Shown: piece after piece, positions 5,850-60,367 of the stretch
How the letters are laid out: every line of letters starts with the position of its first letter
Numbering within the stretch: position 1 is the first letter of the stretch
NCBI GenBank assembly: GCA_934229275.1
Contig: CAKQDN010000001.1
Span: forward strand, 11,596-75,595
Direction: 5' to 3'
Length of the DNA stretch: 64,000 bases
From: an uncultured Clostridia bacterium
GTDB lineage: Bacteria; Bacillota; Clostridia; Christensenellales; Pumilibacteraceae
Made by a program: the position numbers and the translations under genes
The notes under the pieces: model-generated
Seen by the model: only the letters and a program-made list of their open reading frames with translations
Database searches by the model: none
What the model was told of the DNA's origin: nothing

Positions 5850-6713
5850 ATGACTGAGTTTAATTATAATGTGGGTCTTTCGACTGCGTTCGATCTTACG
5901 GAAGAAAATTTCAAAAAGTTGCGGGATGCGGGAATAAGCGCGATAGAAATATCCGTCCCTGCGGAAAAATATGCGGAAATAGATTATGCGGACGTAAAAA
6001 AATTTGCCGACGAATACGGCATAAAACTATGGTCGTATCATCTTCCGTTTTATCCCTTTGAGAAAATAGACATTTCCGCGCTCGACGAGGAACAAAGAAA
6101 GTATACTCTTTCGTATTTTTCGGAAATTATAGAAAAAGCGACTGCCATAGGATTCGATAAATTCGTCGTTCACGCAAGCGGCGAACCTATAGAAGAGTGT
6201 AAGCGAGAAAAAAGAATGTCGCAGGCAAAAAAGTCGCTTGCTTTTCTTGCCGAATTTGCAGGAAAACGCGGTGCGGTGATTGCCGTTGAAGATTTACCTC
6301 GCACTTGTCTCGGGCGAAACAGTGCTGACATAAAGGAACTGTTGTCTGCGGATAAGCGTCTAAAGGTTTGTTTCGATACTAATCACCTTCTCGGCGAAGA
6401 CAATCTCGATTTTATGGAAGCGTTGAAAGATGAAATAATCACCGTTCACGTTTCCGATTACGACCGTGTAAACGAGCGGCACTGGTTGCCCGGCGAAGGC
6501 GTTATCGATTGGCAAAAAATGCTGAAAAAATTTCGCGAGATAGACTATAAAGGCGTGTGGATGTATGAAATTTCGCTTAAATGCCCCAAAACGATTATTC
6601 GCGACAGAGATCTTGATTTCGCGGATTTCCGTGCCAATGCCGATAATATTTTCGCCAACAAACCGCAACCCGTTTTAAGCCGTCATAAGCCCGATCTCGG
6701 TATGTGGGAGTAA
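5850..6713 (+). CDS. sugar phosphate isomerase/epimerase (xylose-isomerase-like TIM barrel)
   Basis: 287 aa, 19 nt after the beta-galactosidase stop with GGAGG RBS; composition and length of the AP-endonuclease-2/xylose-isomerase-like family. Assignment from general similarity only. Confidence 0.5.
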   Translation: MTEFNYNVGLSTAFDLTEENFKKLRDAGISAIEISVPAEKYAEIDYADVKKFADEYGIKLWSYHLPFYPFEKIDISALDEEQRKYTLSYFSEIIEKATAIGFDKFVVHASGEPIEECKREKRMSQAKKSLAFLAEFAGKRGAVIAVEDLPRTCLGRNSADIKELLSADKRLKVCFDTNHLLGEDNLDFMEALKDEIITVHVSDYDRVNERHWLPGEGVIDWQKMLKKFREIDYKGVWMYEISLKCPKTIIRDRDLDFADFRANADNIFANKPQPVLSRHKPDLGMWE

Positions 6714-6731
6714 AAATATCTTACGATAAAA

Positions 6732-6768
6732 GCGCATCGCCATAAACCACTCGGCGGTGCGTTTTTAC
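6732..6768 (+). terminator. rho-independent terminator after the isomerase gene
   Basis: GCGCATCGCC ... GGCGGTGCG stem followed by TTTTT. Confidence 0.55.
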
Positions 6769-6799
6769 GTTGTTTTTTACTCGTTAGTTTTCGCCGCGA

Positions 6800-6828
6800 T
6801 TGACACGCGGAGCGGTTTGTGATATAAT
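6800..6828 (+). promoter_or_regulatory. perfect-consensus sigma-A promoter (TTGACA-N17-TATAAT), upstream tandem promoter of htpG
   Basis: TTGACA 6800-6805, 17-nt spacer, TATAAT 6823-6828; about 175 nt upstream of a second promoter. Confidence 0.5.
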
Positions 6829-6941
6829 TTATTTAATAAAATCCGACGATTTCTTGGCTTTCGTAAAGGGTACCGTCGCCTATAAAACGGCAAAAAGGCG
6901 GCAAAAGACGGCGAACTGTTCAAAAATAACGAAAAGAGGGC

Positions 6942-14156: not shown

Positions 14157-14951
14157 ATGGCGTATCTCGAAGTTAAAAACTTAAATAAATCGTTCGACGG
14201 CACCGCCGTGCTTAAAGACGTCTGTTTTTCCATGGAGCAGGGCGAGGTCATGACCATAATCGGTTCGTCCGGCAGCGGAAAAACGACTGCTCTTCGCTGT
14301 CTCGTCGGCTTGGAAACGCCCGACGGCGGAGAAGCGTTTATCGGCGGCGAACGCATAATCCCGCGTGATAAAAAACGCATAAGCGACGGCGCCGTGGGCA
14401 TGGTTTTCCAGAATTATAATCTGTTTCCGCAGTACAACGTGCTGCAAAACGTCACGCTTGCCATGAACGTGCGCTCAGAAACCGCGTTAAAGGCGCAGAA
14501 AATCGGCTTTTTCGAGCGTAAAAAACGGCTTAAACGGATTAAAAAGCAAAACGCCGAAGCCGCGCTCGGACTGCTGGAAAGAGTGGGGCTGGGCGACAAA
14601 GCAACCGCCTATCCTTGGCAGTTGTCAGGCGGTCAGTGCCAGCGAGTCGCCATTGCGCGTGCGCTTGCTCTTCAGCCGTCGGTATTGTGTTTCGACGAAC
14701 CTACGAGCGCACTCGATCCGCTTTTAACGCAGGAAGTGCTGGGTGTTATCAAGTCGCTTAAAAGCAAGGACATGACCATGATAATAGTCACGCACGAGAT
14801 GAATTTCGCGCGTGCCGTGAGCGATAAGGTGCTGTTCATGTCGGACGGAGTTATTGCCGCCGAGGGAAGTCCCGACTACGTTTTCGGTGACGATGCACCC
14901 GAGCGTGTCAAGGCGTTCATCGCCGGCGCAAAAAGCGACTACGCCGAATAA
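14157..14951 (+). CDS. amino-acid ABC transporter ATP-binding protein
   Basis: Walker A GSSGSGKTT, signature LSGGQCQRVAIARAL, Walker B LCFDEPTSALD. ATG 14157 immediately after the permease stop; the ORF track start at 14121 would overlap the permease. Confidence 0.85.
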   Translation: MAYLEVKNLNKSFDGTAVLKDVCFSMEQGEVMTIIGSSGSGKTTALRCLVGLETPDGGEAFIGGERIIPRDKKRISDGAVGMVFQNYNLFPQYNVLQNVTLAMNVRSETALKAQKIGFFERKKRLKRIKKQNAEAALGLLERVGLGDKATAYPWQLSGGQCQRVAIARALALQPSVLCFDEPTSALDPLLTQEVLGVIKSLKSKDMTMIIVTHEMNFARAVSDKVLFMSDGVIAAEGSPDYVFGDDAPERVKAFIAGAKSDYAE

Positions 14952-15007
14952 CTTACTTTTTTTGGAGAAAAAGTAAGCAAAAAAACTTTTGAGTTAGGAG
15001 AATAATA

Positions 15008-15062
15008 AAACAAGGTTGGTTTTTCTGCTTAAACATTGCAGGTACCGACCTTGTTTTTTATT
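15008..15062 (+). terminator. terminator-like hairpin module (family E) after the ABC ATPase gene
   Basis: AACAAGGTTGG ... CCGACCTTGTT stem followed by TTTTTTATTGTTGTA; a near-identical module sits at 56786-56840 after dnaB. Confidence 0.55.
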
Positions 15063-15143
15063 GTTGTATGGTGGGCGTACTTTAAAGCCTCTCCCTCCGG
15101 GAGAGGTGCGGCGATAGCCGATGGAGAGGGTAATTTAAATTTT

Positions 15144-15173
15144 CGGACAGCCAACGGACGCCTGTCCCTACAA
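15144..15173 (-). repeat. REP element, variant 1 (5'-TTGTAGGGACAGGCGTCCGTTGGCTGTCCG-3' on the minus strand)
   Basis: 30/30 identical to the copy at 56873-56902; GTAG head plus GGACAG/CTGTCC arms. Confidence 0.8.
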
Positions 15174-15740
15174 AGACGCACAAACTTTGGTGCGTTGAAA
15201 TTGACTTCTTTAAAGCCTCCTTTGCTTTGCAAGGGAGGTGGCTTCGAGCATAGCGAGAAGACGGTGGGATTATTATCGGGAGGGGGAACCCCTCCCCTAC
15301 ATAGTAAACCAAACCGAGTGCGATTAAACAAGCGAAATTTACATACCAACCCTCTTCGTCGCGGTAAACCGCGCCACCTCTCCCGAAGGGCGAGGCTTTA
15401 AATGCGGTCAAAGCAGAGGCACCAAACCTTGACAAAATCGCACACCTGTCTTAAAGTTTTTTTGCCTGTTTTTTAAATAAGCAAGGTTTTTAGCCATGCA
15501 TAAGCAGAGGCACCAAACCTTGACAAAATCGCACACCTGTCTTAAAGTTTTTTTGCATACTTTTTTTCAAAAAAAGTATGGTTTCAAAAAAATTAAAAAA
15601 GAGGGGAGAGGTTGTCCTCGTCCCCTGCAATTGGAATTCGGCAAAAAATATTAAATTTCACGGGCGTGCGGTTTGCACGAGCCTGTCGCTTCCGTTACGC
15701 GTACTCGGGAGCGTAAATTTTCTGCTTTTGCGACTGTGAG

Positions 15741-51220: not shown

Positions 51221-51334
51221 GTCCGACGACGAATAACGGCACGCCTTTGCGCTACGTGCGATATTCGAACGGCAGTCACGTACAGGAAGTACGCTATTGC
51301 AATAAGTCGATAGTGTGTTTATCCGACTTTCGTT

Positions 51335-51375
51335 AACTCAAAAGTTTTTTGCCTACTTTTTTGCAAAAAAGTAGG
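51335..51375. repeat. family-D AT-stem palindrome (CCTACTTTTTTGCAAAAAAGTAGG) with conserved 5' AACTCAAAAGTTTTTT leader
   Basis: Related copies at 14953-14997, 15541-15581 and 59953-59994. Confidence 0.7.
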
Positions 51376-51376
51376 G

Positions 51377-51406
51377 GCGGACAGTCGGGGACGCCTGTCC
51401 CTACAG
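51377..51406 (-). repeat. REP element, variant 2 (minus-strand 5'-CTGTAGGGACAGGCGTCCCCGACTGTCCGC-3'), 67 nt upstream of the RAYT gene
   Basis: GTAG head plus GGACAG/CTGTCC arms; 29/30 identical to the 57123-57152 copy. Confidence 0.8.
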
Positions 51407-51472
51407 TAATAAGTCGAAAGTACGTCTACTTAACATCTCAATGCATGAGAGAATAACGTAAAACGATAAGAA

Positions 51473-51997
51473 ATGAATGACATAATCGAAAACAGAGTGT
51501 TGTCGCAAAGAGTTCCGACACGTTTACGATACTATGACTACAATAACGCAGGCGCGTATTTTGTAACAATATGCACAATGGGCAAAAAGTGCATATTGTC
51601 GAAGATTGTAGGGACAGGCGTCCTCGACTGTCCGCAACCGGAATTGACCGAATACGGGAAAATCGCCGAAAAATACATTAAATCGATGGGCGAGTTTTAT
51701 AAACATATTTCTATCGACGGATACGTAATAATGCCCAATCACATTCATATCATGCTTGTTATAAAAGAGTGCGAAACAATTAAAAACGACAGTCGCTCGA
51801 ACAGCGCGTATTCGCGATTTGTTTCTACGTTCAAACGTTTTTGTAATAAAGAGTACGGTAGAAACATTTGGCAGGCGCGTTCCAACGACCACATTATTCG
51901 TAACGAGCATGACTACGAAAAACACATGAAGTATATTTACGAGAATCCCTTGAAGTGGACATCCGACGAGATGTATATAAACGAGGTGCAATTGTGA
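51473..51997 (+). CDS. REP-associated tyrosine transposase (RAYT; IS200/IS605-like Y1 HuH transposase family)
   Basis: YFVTICT N-terminal motif, HuH motif MPNHIHIML, C-terminal catalytic-Tyr region NIWQARSNDHIIRNEHDYEKHMKYIYENPLKW closely resembling E. coli YafM-type RAYTs. Surrounded by cognate GTAG-headed REPs. Confidence 0.8.
   Translation: MNDIIENRVLSQRVPTRLRYYDYNNAGAYFVTICTMGKKCILSKIVGTGVLDCPQPELTEYGKIAEKYIKSMGEFYKHISIDGYVIMPNHIHIMLVIKECETIKNDSRSNSAYSRFVSTFKRFCNKEYGRNIWQARSNDHIIRNEHDYEKHMKYIYENPLKWTSDEMYINEVQL
51606..51635 (+). repeat. REP element, variant 2, in-frame inside the RAYT ORF (encodes IVGTGVLDCPQ)
   Basis: 5'-TTGTAGGGACAGGCGTCCTCGACTGTCCGC-3' differs by 1 nt from the intergenic copies at 51377 and 57123 (reverse complement). 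Confidence 0.75.
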
Positions 51998-56687: not shown

Positions 56688-56872
56688 TTATTTTTAAGGC
56701 GCAAATAAGCCGAAAAGAATGTAAAGGTTTTTTTGATTTAAACGATTTATATCTAAAGTAATTGTAAAGAAGCAGTAAACAGCAAAACAAGGTTGGCTTT
56801 TCCGTTTTAACATCGCGGATTGACCAGCCTTGTTTTTTTATTGTTGTAAGGTGAGCACACATTTGACTTCTT

Positions 56873-56902
56873 TTGTAGGGACAGGCGTCCGTTGGCTGTC
56901 CG
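56873..56902 (+). repeat. REP element, variant 1
   Basis: 5'-TTGTAGGGACAGGCGTCCGTTGGCTGTCCG-3'; identical to the reverse complement of 15144-15173. Confidence 0.8.
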
Positions 56903-56908
56903 TTTAAC

Positions 56909-57011
56909 GGGAGGGTGGAGTCCGGGTCGCAATTATAAATTGCTTCCCGCTTTGGCTACGAATAGTCCACCGGACTATTCGCTTAACGCGTCGCGCCCCG
57001 CCCCTACAAAG
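56909..57011 (-). repeat. about 100-nt structured element (GTAGGGG-headed; contains perfect palindrome GAATAGTCC-ACC-GGACTATTC), copy 1
   Basis: About 95% identical to the reverse complement of 59692-59786. Ends (CCCCGCCCCTACAAAGG) resemble REP heads. Confidence 0.75.
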
Positions 57012-57122
57012 GCGCACAAGCCGAGTGCGCTGAATCAGCCGACTTCTTTAAAGCCTCTCACTCCGGGAGAGGTGGCACGGCGCAAGCCGTGACGGAGAGG
57101 GTAATAATAGGCGCGGACAGTC

Positions 57123-57152
57123 GGGGACGCCTGTCCCTACAAATCGGATGAT
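57123..57152 (-). repeat. REP element, variant 2
   Basis: Reverse complement TTGTAGGGACAGGCGTCCCCGACTGTCCGC. Confidence 0.8.
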
Positions 57153-57346
57153 TTCGTTTTGTCCTGTGCGTTTATCCTTATATCGTAGGGGAGGGGTCTC
57201 CCCTCCCGTTTACTTTAAAATCATGACTTCTTTAAAGCCTCTCACTCCGGGAGAGGTGGCACGGCGCAAGCCGTGACGGAGAGGGTAATTGCTTGAAAAA
57301 AATACCGTTCGTACGCCCTCTTTTCACCCACCTCGACCGCAAAAAA

Positions 57347-57402
57347 TCGTCCGAAAATCGTCCGAAAATTGTCCGAAAATCATCCGAAAATCACCCGAAA
57401 AA
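57347..57402 (+). repeat. five tandem 11-bp repeats (NNTCCGAAAAT), iteron-like
   Basis: TCCGAAAAT at 57350, 57361, 57372, 57383 and CCCGAAAAA at 57394: exact 11-bp phasing. Confidence 0.75.
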
Positions 57403-57476
57403 CGCGGCGGCGCGCTCGATTTTTTAAGATCCGGAAAAATACCGAAAATCGGCAAAGTCGCATAAATAAACATTAT

Positions 57477-57578
57477 TCTACTGAAAGACTAAGCGTAAAC
57501 TGCGGGTAACTAAGCGTAAACTGCGGGTCATCCGCACTTTACGCTTAGTCTTTTTCCTTGATTTTTCAGTAAAAATCG
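57477..57578. repeat. 21-bp direct repeat x2 (ACTAAGCGTAAACTGCGGGT) nested in an inverted repeat (TACTGAAAGACTAAGCGTAAA / TTTACGCTTAGTC...TTTCAGTA)
   Basis: Direct copies at 57488-57508 and 57509-57529; inverted arm at 57538-57575; about 80 nt upstream of the lipoprotein gene. Confidence 0.7.
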
Positions 57579-57655
57579 TGTTAAAATTTTAATGTCGAAC
57601 GGAAATCGCGCGAACGTTTGGCAAAAAAATACATCCGAAAAAGGAGAATTAAAAA

Positions 57656-58102
57656 ATGAAAAAAGTAAAAAGTCTGAAAGTTATTGCAGCCGTGCTGTGT
57701 ATGGTTGCCGTGTGCGTCGCTGCTTTGTCGTTCGGCGCGTGTGCAAAAACAAAAGACGACGGTGCTATTGATGCAGGAGTTATACAGCCCGATGATGGAC
57801 GTCCCGATTTTAATAAAATCTACGAAGACCTCGGCTCGCCGTATTGTTGCACCGTCGCAAAAGACGGAAGTTATCTTTCGGTTGATACCAACTGGCTGGA
57901 CAGAGACGATTATTTCGATTCGACCGCTTACAGCATATTATGCCAGGTTGTAGAAAAATTGGGTTTGCCCGAATCTCTGACAGAAGAAATGAATCACACG
58001 AGAGCAATCGACGGCAGGCTGAGTGAAAAGTATACTTATGTAACCGTTTCGTGGTCGTATCATCCGGATAAAGGGCTCGAAGCAACTTTCAAACTTAATT
58101 AA
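57656..58102 (+). CDS. hypothetical lipoprotein
   Basis: Signal peptide plus lipobox (SFGAC); 148 aa; AAGGAGAA RBS. Confidence 0.55.
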   Translation: MKKVKSLKVIAAVLCMVAVCVAALSFGACAKTKDDGAIDAGVIQPDDGRPDFNKIYEDLGSPYCCTVAKDGSYLSVDTNWLDRDDYFDSTAYSILCQVVEKLGLPESLTEEMNHTRAIDGRLSEKYTYVTVSWSYHPDKGLEATFKLN

Positions 58103-58133
58103 AAATGGTCGTAAAATCAAGGAGAATTAAGAA

Positions 58134-59471
58134 ATGATTTGTAACAAATGTGGGGCGGAGAACGAGGAAGGAACCGTTTTCTGCGGAACGTGCGGCGCTC
58201 GTCTTGACGGGAAAATCAAGTGTCCGTCGTGCGGAAAGTACATCGACCCTAGCAACGTTTATTGCCCCGAGTGCGGAACGCGAACGGACGGCAAAAAGAC
58301 CTGCCCGAAGTGCGGCTCGGTGGTCGAGGGTAAGTTTTGTCCGAAGTGCGGTACCGCCGTGGATAAAGCCGGGAGAATAGAGAACGCTAAAACGAAAAAA
58401 ATACTGAGCATAGTGTCTAATGCGCTTTTTCTTTGCGCAGTGGCAGTATCATTGTTGTTTATATTCTTAATCGGATGGGAAAGCAGTTCTTCAACCAAGT
58501 TTACATCGAACAGCGAATCGGCGAATATTTTCTATTTGTTCGGGAAGAAAAACGAATATTTCGATTCATCGTATAATTGGCTCCCGATAACGCTGTACAT
58601 AATTTCGTTATTGCTTGTTATTGGGTTTGCGACGATAGCGGCAATTAAATCCGTTCCTTTGTTTAAAGGTGAAAATAAGGGTGAGATAGTCACGTACTCT
58701 TTTGTGCCGGTAATCGTCTATTTTGCATTCTGTCTTATAGTCAAAATGTTTGTCGGAATGAGCAATAATGGTGATATTGAAGGAATAGCGACGGAAGCAA
58801 GTGTGAAACTTAATCCGGCGACAGTGGCAGGATTGATTATTGCGATATTACTATTTATCGCAGGATTGATATTGCATATTGTGGCAAATAACGAGAATGA
58901 AAACAAAAAGAGATATATGACGAACGCAATAAACGCATGTATCGGAGTCGGTATTGTGTTTGTGCTTATATTATTTATCGGTAGCACCGGAATAGATTTC
59001 AGGACTGATCTTCGTGAAAGGTCTAGTATTTATTCATCATCGTATAATGAGTCTTACATTGAAGGAAGGAACTCAATAGTACGTGTGGCTGCTGCGCTTG
59101 AGAAAAAAAGCCTGGGCTTGACTGCTATGTTGTTTGGCATTGCAGCCGTAGCGTTGGCGGTTTATATCGCGATCGTGGCTTTGAAAAAAACGAATAGCAA
59201 AACCTCGATGTTGAGAGTTATTCTTTCGTCGTTGGAAGTTGCGCTGTCGATTGTTTTTATGATTTTTACTTTAGTACTATCCGGTAAATATGAAAAATCT
59301 TTAAACCCAGACCCCACCTCGTATGTTATATGTACAGGTTCGGCATCTGCGCCGATGTTTGTCGGAGTTATCGTTTTTGCGGTTTTATTGTTGGCTTCGT
59401 CGATAGTTGCTTGCGTTTTGGAAAAGAAAACCGCTAATGCAGCAGGGGCAGATTATAATTACGACATGTAA
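58134..59471 (+). CDS. zinc-ribbon-domain polytopic membrane protein
   Basis: N-terminal 4x CxxCG...CxxCG zinc ribbons (residues 4-75) followed by about 8 TM helices; AAGGAGAA RBS; no further functional assignment. Confidence 0.6.
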   Translation: MICNKCGAENEEGTVFCGTCGARLDGKIKCPSCGKYIDPSNVYCPECGTRTDGKKTCPKCGSVVEGKFCPKCGTAVDKAGRIENAKTKKILSIVSNALFLCAVAVSLLFIFLIGWESSSSTKFTSNSESANIFYLFGKKNEYFDSSYNWLPITLYIISLLLVIGFATIAAIKSVPLFKGENKGEIVTYSFVPVIVYFAFCLIVKMFVGMSNNGDIEGIATEASVKLNPATVAGLIIAILLFIAGLILHIVANNENENKKRYMTNAINACIGVGIVFVLILFIGSTGIDFRTDLRERSSIYSSSYNESYIEGRNSIVRVAAALEKKSLGLTAMLFGIAAVALAVYIAIVALKKTNSKTSMLRVILSSLEVALSIVFMIFTLVLSGKYEKSLNPDPTSYVICTGSASAPMFVGVIVFAVLLLASSIVACVLEKKTANAAGADYNYDM

Positions 59472-60016
59472 ATTATTCAGACACACCACCACCCGTTTTA
59501 AGGCACTCTTGCCCGATGGATAAAATCGGATAGGGGTGCCTGTTTTTTTAAAGTGGGACATGGATGGTCGTCGTCGGAGTTGATCGCGTATCGGAGTGGT
59601 TAAATAACCCTCTTCGTCGGCTGCCGCCGCCATCTCTCCCAGTGGGCGAGGCTTTAAAGAGGACGATTTTAAAGCACCAAGGTTTGAGCGACTTTGTAGG
59701 GGAGGGGCGCGACGCGTTAAGCGAATAGTCCGGTGGACTATTCGTAGCCAAAGCGGGAAGCAATTTATAATTGCGACCCGGACTCCCCCCCCTCCCGAAA
59801 ATAATCCCACCGTCTTCTCGCTATGCTCGAAGCCACCTCCCTTGCATAGCAAAGGAGGCTTTAAAGAGGTCGATTATTTTAAAGTAAGCGGATAGAAGGT
59901 AGCGCCCTGTCCCTACAAAAAAAGTCAAAAGTGCGTTCTCCCAACTTCCCCTAACTCAAAAGTTTTTTGCCTACTTTTTTTCAAAAAAGTACGGTGCTTT
60001 TTTACAAAAAAGTAAG
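59472..60016. repeat. BIME-like mosaic cluster 3 (terminator hairpin, inverted family-A hairpins, about 100-nt element copy 2, truncated REP, family-D palindrome)
   Basis: Hairpin plus T-run 59492-59548, family A (inverted) 59600-59665 and 59833-59880, long element 59692-59786, REP half CCTGTCCCTACAA at 59906-59918, family D at 59953-59994. Confidence 0.8.
59692..59786 (+). repeat. about 100-nt structured element, copy 2 (inverted relative to copy 1)
   Basis: 5'-TTGTAGGGGAGGGGCGCGACGCGTTAAGCGAATAGTCCGGTGGACTATTCG...GGACTCCCCCCCCTCCCG-3'. Confidence 0.75.
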
Positions 60017-60367
60017 TCAGCCGACGAGGAAATCGGTGGCGGAGGAGAAAATATCGTTTACTTTCCGATCGGTCACGGAATAGAAAACGACCTTTCCGTC
60101 GCGTTTGTACTTAACGAAACCGCTGCCGCGAAGCGTTTTCAGTTGGTGCGAAACGGTGGTCTGGTTAAGCCCGAGCAAAAGCGAAATATCCCCCACGCAC
60201 ATGGGCGTAATCGACAATGCCGACAGAATTTTAAGCCGGGTTCTGTCGCCGAGCACGGCAAACAGGTCGGAAAGGCGCAAAAGAGCGTCCTCGCCGGGCA
60301 TGTACTTTTCGACTTTCATGGCGCTGGGCGCGTCGAGCGTAAGGCTTTCGAGAATGTTTTGATTCAT
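60017..60367 (-). CDS. ArsR/SmtB-family metalloregulatory transcriptional repressor
   Basis: Winged HTH LSDLFAVLGDRTRLKILSAL ... DISLLLGLNQTTVSHQLKTLR; AAGGAGAAT RBS. Confidence 0.8.
   Translation of the reverse strand: MNQNILESLTLDAPSAMKVEKYMPGEDALLRLSDLFAVLGDRTRLKILSALSITPMCVGDISLLLGLNQTTVSHQLKTLRGSGFVKYKRDGKVVFYSVTDRKVNDIFSSATDFLVG

Follow-up and report, generated by a model that had tools for sequence, protein, structure and literature searches.

A probable REP/RAYT system with BIME-like repeat clusters in an uncultured gut Clostridia species

To our knowledge, work on REP/RAYT systems has been confined almost entirely to Proteobacteria. RAYTs are nucleases of the HUH/Tyr type that act on single strands, recognizing and cleaving GTAG REPs. 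The repeats described below resemble those of E. coli TnpA-REP/YafM and the GTAG REPs (Di Nocera et al. 2013, PMC3733652; Nunvar et al. 2010, PMC2817692) in being GTAG-headed palindromes of 25-35 nt. As in REP/BIME systems, many extragenic copies lie behind genes in mosaic clusters of alternating orientation, and the same REP flanks a RAYT gene whose product has the HUH and Tyr motifs. Unlike in those systems, units without GTAG (A, A', D, F, and T) are interspersed among the REPs of the clusters, the RAYT gene is polymorphic among strains and has REPs within its reading frame, and one REP family bears a large structured insert. The host belongs to gut Clostridia, whereas the survey of GTAG REPs by Di Nocera et al. 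(2013, PMC3733652) mentions no Firmicutes, and only Group 1 RAYTs were noted in Clostridia by Bertels et al. (2017). A partial likeness may also exist with REPINs, in which two inverted REPs with a short spacer make up a longer unit that is capable of forming a hairpin and replicates as one (Bertels and Rainey 2011, PMC3116915). Here, a B-type REP in reverse complement and the C element constitute a 139-nt doublet (56872-57010, ends TTTGTAGGG...CCCTACAAA; fold z = -3.8), but its halves are different REP types that pair only at the head, and its spacer is filled by a module of ~78 nt.

The analyzed window is a stretch of 64,000 nt from an uncultured Clostridia bacterium. At least six short repeat families, including C, form mosaic clusters in four of its intergenic regions; the recurring families A, B, E, F, and T are located at 14.95-15.6 kb, 51.3-51.65 kb, 56.8-57.3 kb, and 59.6-60.0 kb (Table 1). 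Families B, E, and C have a GTAG-headed REP palindrome in common: B is GTAGGGACAGGCGTCC-n5-CTGTCCG, E is GTAGGGGAGGGG-n3-CCCCTCCCG, and C has both the stem and the head of E. The stems are imperfect and G+C-rich, and the untagged ends terminate in CCG. An earlier note on this DNA had likened the termini of C to the GTAG REP head, and this was correct: seven heads were counted in the window, whether as TTTGTAGGGNNGGG or as TTTGTAGGG, against 0.19 expected. At least 11 GTAG-headed units are present in the 64 kb, all of them intergenic except one inside the RAYT ORF. Dozens were found within 35 kb of MAG CAKQJJ01, and the B 18-mer was detected in more than 120 metagenome loci in the JGI metagenome scan. 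The REPs alternate in orientation and are interleaved with other motifs in a recurring order; the adjacency A'-E/C-D-A and the leading position of T were seen in loci of the MAG as well as in three clusters of the window (15 kb, 56.8 kb, and 59.6 kb). The clusters are BIME-like mosaics of several short palindromic families located behind gene 3' ends.

Table 1. Repeat units and genes of the analyzed window
Feature	Position	Strand	Evidence or remark
Mosaic cluster: F, T, A, B, D, A', E, D, A(rc), F	14950-15600	.	same families
T unit, second copy	15007-15073
B-type GTAG REP, immediately 5' of RAYT gene	51378-51407	+	preceded by F unit 51334-51375
RAYT homologue, 174 aa	51473-51997	+	PDB 4ER8, NCBIfam NF047646
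B-type REP inside RAYT reading frame (encodes KIVGTGVLDCP)	51597-51637	-
T unit: terminator-like hairpin and T-run, opens left cluster directly after dnaB	56784-56853	+
B-type GTAG REP (TTTGTAGGGACAGGCGTCC-GTTGG-CTGTCCG)	56872-56902	-	repeat search
Left C element: E-type REP stem (GGGAGGG ... CCCCGCCCCTACAAA) around module	56909-57011	+	repeat search, sequence
D hairpin (GCGCAC-aagccga-GTGCGC), after E/C units	57012-57040	+	mirror copy 59666-59691
A unit (CTTTAAAGCCTC, two hairpins, GGAGAGGGTAAT)	57041-57105	+	repeat search
B-type GTAG REP	57114-57143	+	repeat search
E-type GTAG REP without module (GTAGGGGAGGGG-tct-CCCCTCCC)	57185-57208	-
Second A unit, 100% identical to 57041-57105	57225-57289	+	repeat search
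Tandem 11-nt units (TCCGAAAATCG), five to six, upstream of cassette promoter region	57339-57403	+	repeat search
ACTAAGCGTAAACTGCGG x3 (two direct, one inverted), forms long hairpin	57484-57553	+	repeat search
Predicted lipoprotein, 148 aa (lipobox-like LSFGAC)	57656-58102	+
445-aa protein, N-terminal double zinc ribbons and multi-pass membrane region	58134-59471	+	PF12773, PF13240, PF13248
Terminator-like hairpin and T-run after Zn-ribbon gene	59503-59550	+
A unit, reverse complement	59600-59665	-	repeat search
Right C element: perfect E-type stem GGGAGGGG/CCCCTCCC and module	59692-59790	-	repeat search, covariance model
A' unit (A variant), equivalent to 15203-15274	59800-59872	-	98.5%
Degenerate B-type REP	59890-59919	+	repeat search
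F units (AAAAGTTTTTTGCCTACTTTTTTTCAAAAAAGTA)	59957-60014	+	further copies 51339-51375, 15549-15578

The repeat system is probably explained by a RAYT gene that the earlier note had not recognized, located in the same window ~5 kb from the C elements. The encoded protein shows similarity to the TnpArep structure PDB 4ER8 (E = 3.9e-9) and to NCBIfam NF047646 (E = 2.9e-17, 62.9 bits, under the cutoff of 80); no Pfam match was obtained for the ORF at E <= 0.01. It is called a RAYT homologue here because it is a divergent member that scores below the curated NF047646 cutoff. According to the translation, the motifs are intact: HUH in MPNHIHIML (HIH, residues 89-91), the catalytic Tyr in KYIYENPLK (KYIYENP, residues 153-159), which has the YIxxNP context, and the WQxR...DH.IRN block in NIWQARSNDHIIRN, which aligns to NIWQPRFWEHAIRN of 4ER8. 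The position of B-type REPs upstream of and inside the gene is an association of the REPtron type, and of 120 metagenome loci retrieved through the B 18-mer, 13 encode the same RAYT family. The RAYT of the window lacks a segment that its homologues have, and conspecific strains have no such gene at this site; it may be inactive or itself mobile.

The C elements form an inverted pair with arms of 110 nt (56913-57022 and 59681-59790) that are 95% complementary and spaced by 2658 nt. The pair had previously been described as an element of about 100 nt at 56909-57011 and 59692-59786, and the arms proved slightly longer. The palindrome reported for it, GAATAGTCC-N3-GGACTATTC, has two sites in the window, both in the C arms, against 0.04 expected from shuffles. 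Family-A hairpins flank the unit where the earlier note had placed them, and its view of C as a structured repeat with copies in the clusters to the left and right of the gene pair is supported. The mirror symmetry extends beyond 110 nt, as the left cluster and the reverse complement of the right one share the unit order B-(A')-C-D-A. Structurally, C is an E-type REP with two further hairpins in its loop, which make up a conserved module of ~78 nt. The left module gives a covariance-model match at 56922-56999 (107.5 bits), and the right one spans 59704-59781; the right C element, folded as single-stranded DNA, forms a closed three-way structure (z = -4.4). At 15203-15301, a paralogous A'-E junction contains the same REP without the module and matches the right A'-C junction.

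The preferred reading, to which we assign a probability of about 0.7, is that the window carries a REP/RAYT/BIME-like system of an uncultured gut Clostridia species and that the two elements represent an interspersed repeat of REP type and do not form cassette or transposon ends. The REP units would have been seeded and spread by RAYT-dependent single-strand DNA processing; the clusters may then evolve fast by gain, loss, and replacement of units and by gene conversion. The left C follows dnaB (+), the right C follows arsR (-), and the inverted orientation probably reflects the convergence of these genes, since each copy is co-oriented with the gene preceding it. Two C copies 2.7 kb apart with a mirrored B-(A')-C-D-A order exceed the simplest outcome of independent insertion; the arrangement probably goes back to inverted duplication of a composite, or else to gene conversion involving both clusters. 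A complete example of a REP/RAYT system, with the RAYT, GTAG REPs, and BIME-like clusters, is readable from sequence in an uncultured gut Clostridia species.

Turnover of the clusters is visible between strains of 98% identity, the nucleotide identity of conspecific strains to the window. In strains L066, L067, and L069, only cgGGAGGGGgaaCCCCTCCCctacaaagg, a plain E hairpin, is found at the exact left C position, with the T-B-E-D-A units around it kept; the comparison covers the dnaB-side units up to the A unit, inside which these contigs end. The system also illustrates how REP clusters break up metagenome assemblies. An assembly artefact was rejected, because both junctions of this allele are specific to the left locus and it was seen in three independent samples. 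Strains L058 and L060 have A and an intact B at the site of the degenerate B-type REP, and the second hairpin of the A unit at 59600-59665 varies between strains with compensating changes. In L058, the right arm and the terminator hairpin are kept, and the adjoining gene is different, with only 21% identity; no matches were obtained when this divergent allele was extended by protein search. The sister species L046 (DnaB 96%, 82-88% nucleotide identity) has neither REPs nor RAYT after pepF; after dnaB, it shows the start of a different lipoprotein gene and again no REPs. Its contig covers ~350 nt after dnaB, and absence of the cassette applies to the comparable sites only. None of the families described here was found in the loci of more distant relatives. 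The strain variation fits recombination between or within repeat clusters, and this part of the earlier proposal, which had offered either a MITE/REP-bounded mobile cassette or recombination between clusters, was retained. The region after dnaB appears to be a synteny breakpoint with alternative low-GC surface-protein genes in different strains, and portable homology supplied by the clusters would be consistent with it. The REP clusters mark a hypervariable envelope-protein locus adjoining dnaB.

The module is the one less ordinary feature of the system, and it demonstrates that a REP loop is able to host a conserved structured module that varies between strains. At the same site, some strains have it and others do not, and its stems are kept by compensatory changes: both hairpins covary, with 11 of 18 pairs changed on both sides and 98% of cells paired, a level reached in none of 500 shuffles. 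Copies with 97-100% identity were detected in seven unrelated intergenic regions of MAG CAKQJJ01 (with B adjoining C in three of the seven), in strain L058, and in three metagenome loci. A diverged copy occurs in Bifidobacterium primatium, and a multi-copy repeat of Streptococcus suis contains the 10-3-10 hairpin in identical form. One may tentatively suppose that the module is a separate, undescribed miniature element or structured DNA/RNA signal lodging specifically in GTAG-REP loops and spread across phyla. If so, it would be a parasite of a parasite, near-identical in gut Clostridia, diverged in B. primatium, and represented by a hairpin in S. suis, and would extend REP biology by a further layer; failing that, the locus is a well-explained repeat landscape. 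PATEs, IS200/IS605-derived miniature elements with subterminal hairpins, are similar in that they lack both terminal inverted repeats and a target duplication and have hairpins close to their two ends; in addition, the Y1 HUH enzyme family present in the genome acts on single-stranded hairpins. Unlike in PATEs, the two hairpins of the module are dissimilar, its ends are not definable to the nucleotide, and no cognate IS was found; no IS200-type transposase was present near any C copy in the fetched loci. A discrete sequence that sits inside a REP and is carried at a given site by only some strains is also known from IS1397/ISKpn1 and from ISPpu9 with ssr9 (PMC1525189; PMC12288879). The latter, belonging to the IS110-family ISPpu9, is a small non-coding, separately mobile module that spreads into REPs using the enzyme of another element (PMC1525189; PMC12288879). 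In contrast to such REP-inserting IS elements, the module has only ~78 nt and no terminal inverted repeats or recognizable duplication, and no associated IS was seen in any fetched C locus. BLAST searches for the C element in PLSDB plasmids and INPHARED phages gave no matches, the C palindrome was found in no viral contigs, and its combination with CTTAA gave none in the JGI metagenome scan. Two further candidates were rejected: an integron attC, as cassettes would have direct repeats and an integrase, and a DGR template/variable repeat pair, as the mismatches between the arms are not adenine-specific.

It appears unlikely that the module is a 3'-UTR element or small RNA under selection that acts on the dnaB and arsR transcripts, with the REP stem as a mere carrier. 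Such a function would agree with the near-invariant core among copies with differing flanks, the covariation of both hairpins, the conservation of the ACC loop and of the single-stranded stretches CCCGCTTTGGCTA and CGCGTCGCGCC, the diverged Bifidobacterium copy, and the co-orientation of seven of the eight interpretable copies with an adjacent gene, as judged by reading of the loci. However, every one of the 15 changed cells forms a Watson-Crick pair on either strand, without G-U intermediates, which favors a palindrome at the DNA level, these cells coming from only three to four diverged sequences. The module is, moreover, dispensable between strains at the same site and has no terminator of its own. 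Rfam 15 gave nothing relevant for the whole window at gathering thresholds and no match for 56700-60100 even at E <= 1, and ARAGORN found no tRNA or tmRNA in the window. A promoter in the module was rejected, as TATAAT on the reverse strand of hairpin 1 is lost in L094 and the promoter scan lists nothing there. The same applies to a tRNA-like or hammerhead-like three-way junction, for which sequence reading revealed no acceptor pairing and no CUGAUGA/GAAA core.

The mobile-cassette part of the earlier proposal fared worse. Both ORFs that it placed between the arms exist, the second with DZR/Zn_Ribbon domains and with homologues found; no family match was obtained for the 148-aa predicted lipoprotein. 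The GC content of the cassette is 38-45% versus 52-55% in dnaB/typA, and its exact proteins were found on three contigs, DnaB on 15, and ArsR on 17; it is an accessory, strain-variable membrane-protein locus. The low GC, the difference between conspecific strains after dnaB, the REPtron-like geometry of genes flanked by inverted REPs, and a RAYT encoded 5 kb away would suit C elements serving as REPtron REPs or composite-transposon arms, with the gene pair as cargo moved in trans by the RAYT or another transposase. Nevertheless, this reading is quite improbable. No target-site duplication is present at the C ends or the outer B ends (flanks ...CCGTTTAAC and GAAAATAAT...). The junctions lie elsewhere than at the element ends: the left edge of the strain-variable region is 56705/56706, ~200 nt outside the left arm, internal variants exist, and strains that retain the neighboring units lack the module that gives the left arm its length. 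The L058 allele, with its right arm and terminator beside a gene of only 21% identity, also argues against it. All other C copies found are single copies in unrelated intergenic regions, the only distant full-length homologue found (P0003) has another context and no C, and neither a second location of the cassette nor a transposase or recombinase in or beside the cassette was found.

Least likely is an inversion of the 2.7-kb segment by RecA or an invertase, resulting in phase variation of two envelope proteins: 110-nt repeats at 95% identity suffice for homologous recombination, and the right C copy of L058 resembles the left copy of the window, as would fit exchange or gene conversion between arms, but all contigs spanning a junction (L001/L053, L058, L063, L002) show one orientation, no invertase gene lies nearby, and the segment contains its own upstream region, so that inversion would be no obvious expression switch. 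A sequence like the ACTAAGCGTAAACTGCGG repeats of this upstream region was detected 5' of a 32%-identical Zn-ribbon homologue in another species (L061, 3073-3118, 87%).

According to a repeat search of the window, two inverted arms of 110 nt each (56913-57022 and 59681-59790) are 95% complementary and lie 2658 nt apart, so the inverted structured repeat of about 100 nt reported in the earlier note (element C) is real. The perfect 10-3-10 palindrome within C has two sites in the window, both in C (0.04 expected). The right C copy, folded as single-stranded DNA, gives a closed three-way structure (z = -4.4). The repeat-rich region and both ORFs previously placed between the arms, in the segment called the cassette, were found there.

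Repeat units and features of the locus and of the compared contigs (window positions unless a contig is named)
Feature	Position	Strand	Description
T unit			terminator-like hairpin
A, A' units			CTTTAAAGCCTC + two hairpins + GGAGAGGG
B unit			CGGACAG..GGACGCCTGTCCCTACAAA
C unit			about 100-nt element of the earlier note
D unit			short hairpin
E unit			CGGGAGGGG-n3-CCCCTCCCCTACA
F unit			AAAAGTTTTTTGCCTACTTTTTTTCAAAAAAGTA
B REP	51378-51407		just upstream of the RAYT ORF
B REP	51597-51637		in frame within the RAYT ORF
typA, dnaB		+	left flank of the cassette
Tandem 11-nt array	57339-57403		between the arms
Triple 18-mer hairpin	57484-57553		between the arms
Lipoprotein ORF	57656-58102		148 aa; between the arms
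Zinc-ribbon ORF	58134-59471		445 aa; double zinc ribbons and membrane region; between the arms
ArsR-type regulator		-	right flank of the cassette
SASA-domain protein			right flank of the cassette
Type I lipoprotein gene	L065 4912-5169; L068 3555-3821; L072 2663-2878; L046 11665-11916		comparison contigs

The interpretation offered earlier combined REP-like repeat clusters and recombination, which stand, with a mobile cassette, which does not: judging from the sequence, the cassette does not appear to be mobile. Neither the C ends nor the outer B ends in the window are flanked by a target-site duplication, and no transposase or recombinase gene lies in or beside the cassette. In related strains, variation starts not at the end of C, as a mobile unit bounded by C would imply, but at 56705/56706, 18 nt past the dnaB stop codon and approximately 200 nt outside the C arm. 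Two contigs (L058 and L060) encode an ArsR protein identical to that of the window and are 98.6% identical to it over 2.7 kb. In their right cluster the outer unit is replaced (A plus B vs. a degenerate B in the window), the C copy resembles the left copy of the window, and the second hairpin of the A unit is compensated differently. L058 holds a different neighbouring gene, whose product is 21% identical over the membrane region; similarity to the window ends at the stop codon of this gene, and the terminator is kept (the L060 contig ends within C, before the neighbouring gene). In L063 and L195 the cassette proteins are 93-95% identical, and L063, the one aligned to the window, has the same immediate cassette flanks. 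Exact cassette proteins are much rarer in assemblies (3 contigs) than DnaB (15) and ArsR (17), and the GC content of the cassette is 38-45% vs. 52-55% for dnaB/typA. In relatives with DnaB 79-86% identical, dnaB is followed by other genes and the loci contain no member of the repeat families; in the sister species (L046), repeats and RAYT (REP-associated tyrosine transposase) are missing after pepF, as are repeats after dnaB. The locus is best described as a hypervariable envelope-protein site at a synteny breakpoint, between fast-evolving REP clusters.

The same short units build four intergenic regions of the window (14.95-15.6, 51.3-51.65, 56.8-57.3, and 59.6-60.0 kb). B, E, and C have a common terminus, (TTT)GTAGGG followed by a G+C-rich palindrome, which is the signature of GTAG-tagged REPs; the REP-like terminus proposed for C is thus borne out, with seven GTAG head motifs in the window vs. 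0.19 expected. The unit order is stereotyped (A'-E/C-D-A, with T first), as it is in BIMEs, and for this reason the mirror symmetry around the cassette extends beyond C and covers B-(A')-C-D-A. Comparison of the A units at 59600-59665 (with L058 and L063) and 57041-57105 revealed that the second hairpin varies between copies and strains (CACGGC-gcaa-GCCGTG, GCGCGAT-tta-TCGCGAC, GGCGGCG-tca-GCCGAC). With compensating changes and unaltered flanks (GAGAGGTGGC and GACGGAGAGGG), the A family is likewise structurally conserved.

The C copies are probably inverted because the flanking genes are convergent and each copy has the orientation of the gene that precedes it, dnaB (+) or arsR (-). By inspection, seven of the eight interpretable C copies elsewhere point the same way as a neighbouring gene. 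With four clusters in 64 kb, two of them containing C, two adjacent C copies could plausibly be a chance outcome. Duplication of a composite, or gene conversion between the left and right clusters, is nevertheless suggested by their common unit order and by the L058 pattern.

A scan of genome collections for other copies of C, as had been proposed, showed that a single fragmented MAG (CAKQJJ01, uncultured Clostridia, Hadza gut) has the palindrome on seven contigs, in unrelated intergenic regions, e.g., near a ribosomal-protein operon. A two-hairpin module of about 78 nt in these copies is 97-100% identical to that of the window, and the flanks are of three types. Among contigs with identical DnaB protein and 98-99% DNA identity, three states were found after dnaB. 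In type I, shared by L065, L068, L072, and the sister species (L046), the cluster is missing and a different lipoprotein gene with a Cys-rich product is present. Type II, seen in the window and in L064, reads T, B(rc), C, D, A. Type III (L066, L067, and L069, from three samples) retains T, B(rc), D, and A, and exactly the position of the left C of the window is taken by a plain E hairpin (cgGGAGGGGgaaCCCCTCCCctacaaagg). Samples that yielded conspecific strains include ERZ28613879, SRR25448497, SRR29134110/144/258, and ERZ27280881. Paralogous sites are alike, with A'-E at 15203-15301 vs. A'-C in the right cluster. Both comparisons show C to be an E-type REP whose loop contains the module or has been replaced by it; insertion may have formed C, or deletion E. 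Metagenome contig L148 (28-129) retains hairpin 1 and a left module flank of subtype 3; beyond these, its sequence is AT-rich and unrelated and forms another hairpin. The contig, which has a poly-G run at its end, may hold a disrupted or extended form of C. The type I gene, absent from the window, encodes a lipoprotein with Cys-rich repeats (CxHEWS..CETEGEK..C.KCGE); being only 68-94% identical among strains with identical DnaB, it is fast-evolving itself.

Both module hairpins change compensatorily in diverged copies from metagenomes (L077, L094, L103) and from Bifidobacterium primatium (L035). Hairpin 1, GCAATT-ATA-AATTGC, becomes GCAAGC-ACG-GCTTGC or CGAT-ATA-ATCG; hairpin 2, CGAATAGTCC-ACC-GGACTATTCG, becomes AAAATATGCC-ACC-GGCATATTTT or TTGACAGCCC-ACC-GGGCTGTCAA. 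Outside the stems, the ACC loop is retained, as are CCCGCTTTGGCTA and CGCGTCGCGCC, which are unpaired. In the model-based alignment, which was fitted to the covariance model and draws its information from three or four sequences, both partners differ in 11 of the 18 pairs and pairing is preserved in 98.3% of cells; neither shuffles nor shifted registers approach this. Changes in the stems are never one-sided (no G-U), which favours palindromes read as DNA, i.e., hairpins on either strand or cruciforms, rather than RNA. The B. primatium copy (L035 1120-1194, 37 bits by the model) carries the CGAT-ATA-ATCG form, is identical over a 34-nt run covering hairpin 2 and the following CTTAACG, and overlaps the 3' end of an ABC-ATPase ORF; other palindromic repeats lie in the neighbouring DNA. 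B. saguini (L034 1240-1299) has an A-like GAGGTGGCA..GACGGAGGGAGAG. The 10-3-10 palindrome CGAATAGTCC-N3-GGACTATTCG, with an ACC or ACT loop, occurs unchanged in Streptococcus suis (L003-L045 loci) as part of a composite repeat, about 110-200 nt long and present in multiple copies, that has the hairpin alone in common with C; this could reflect chance, convergence, or a shared protein-binding hairpin.

Screening of all six-frame ORFs against an E. coli RAYT sequence pointed to ORF 51473-51997 (174 aa). It matches PDB 4ER8 'TnpArep' (E = 3.9e-9) in an alignment spanning the HUH motif (MPNHIHIML), the WQ.R...DH.IRN block, and the catalytic-Tyr motif (YIYENP), and NCBIfam NF047646 'REP-associated tyrosine transposase' with E = 2.9e-17 and 62.9 bits, under the 80-bit cutoff. 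As Pfam gave no match at E <= 0.01, the protein is a divergent member of the RAYT family. Group 1 RAYTs have been mentioned in Clostridia (Bertels et al. 2017), and Firmicutes are not mentioned in a survey of GTAG REPs by Di Nocera et al. 2013 (PMC3733652). A metagenome scan with the B 18-mer yielded at least 120 loci; 13 of the 120 listed have a RAYT ORF of the same family as the window ORF, and in most of them two inverted in-frame B REPs (VGTGVLDCP, GQSRTPVPT) flank the HUH motif, an arrangement for which no description was found in the REP/RAYT literature searched. The pair, read as (I)VGTGVLDCP and GQSRTPVPT, is present in the ORFs of L084 (a full-length homologue), L130, L165, L170, L108, L119, L166, and L076; the window ORF has the first alone. 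The B REP and RAYT ORF (window 51376-51971) are present or absent between strains of 98% identity: positions 1-130 of L065/L066/L067 have an F unit, AACACCG, and TGTATATAAACGAGG, with about 596 nt absent, up to a right junction that falls two to three codons short of the RAYT stop. At this site, L046 (the sister species; 6640-6900) is without F, B, and RAYT.

At the level of sequence comparison, the following are established: GTAG-headed REP families, a RAYT homologue with intact catalytic motifs, the organization of the clusters, gain and loss between strains of the module and of cluster units, and a conserved module structure. By analogy with the RAYT/IS200 family, RAYT would bind and cut GTAG hairpins as single-stranded DNA, seeding and spreading them. 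The clusters may terminate or insulate transcription, since T units and terminators lead them, and may supply portable homology for replacing the genes between them. A known precedent for sequences that lodge in REPs comes from insertion sequences that target REPs, among them ISPpu9 with its separately mobile ssr9 module (PMC1525189; PMC12288879). The whole appears to be a REP/RAYT/BIME-like system, of a known kind, in a little-described host, a gut Clostridia species; its one new feature is the conserved, covarying, strain-polymorphic module inside a REP loop.

Upstream of the cassette genes, the five to six tandem 11-nt units (TCCGAAAATCG), spaced by about one helical turn, could be phased A-tracts or iteron-like sites. 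The long hairpin that follows consists of three copies of ACTAAGCGTAAACTGCGG, approximately 100 nt upstream of the lipoprotein gene, and metagenome contigs break there. An 87% similar sequence (L061 3073-3118) precedes a 32%-identical zinc-ribbon membrane homologue in another species, which suggests a conserved operator or leader of this gene family.
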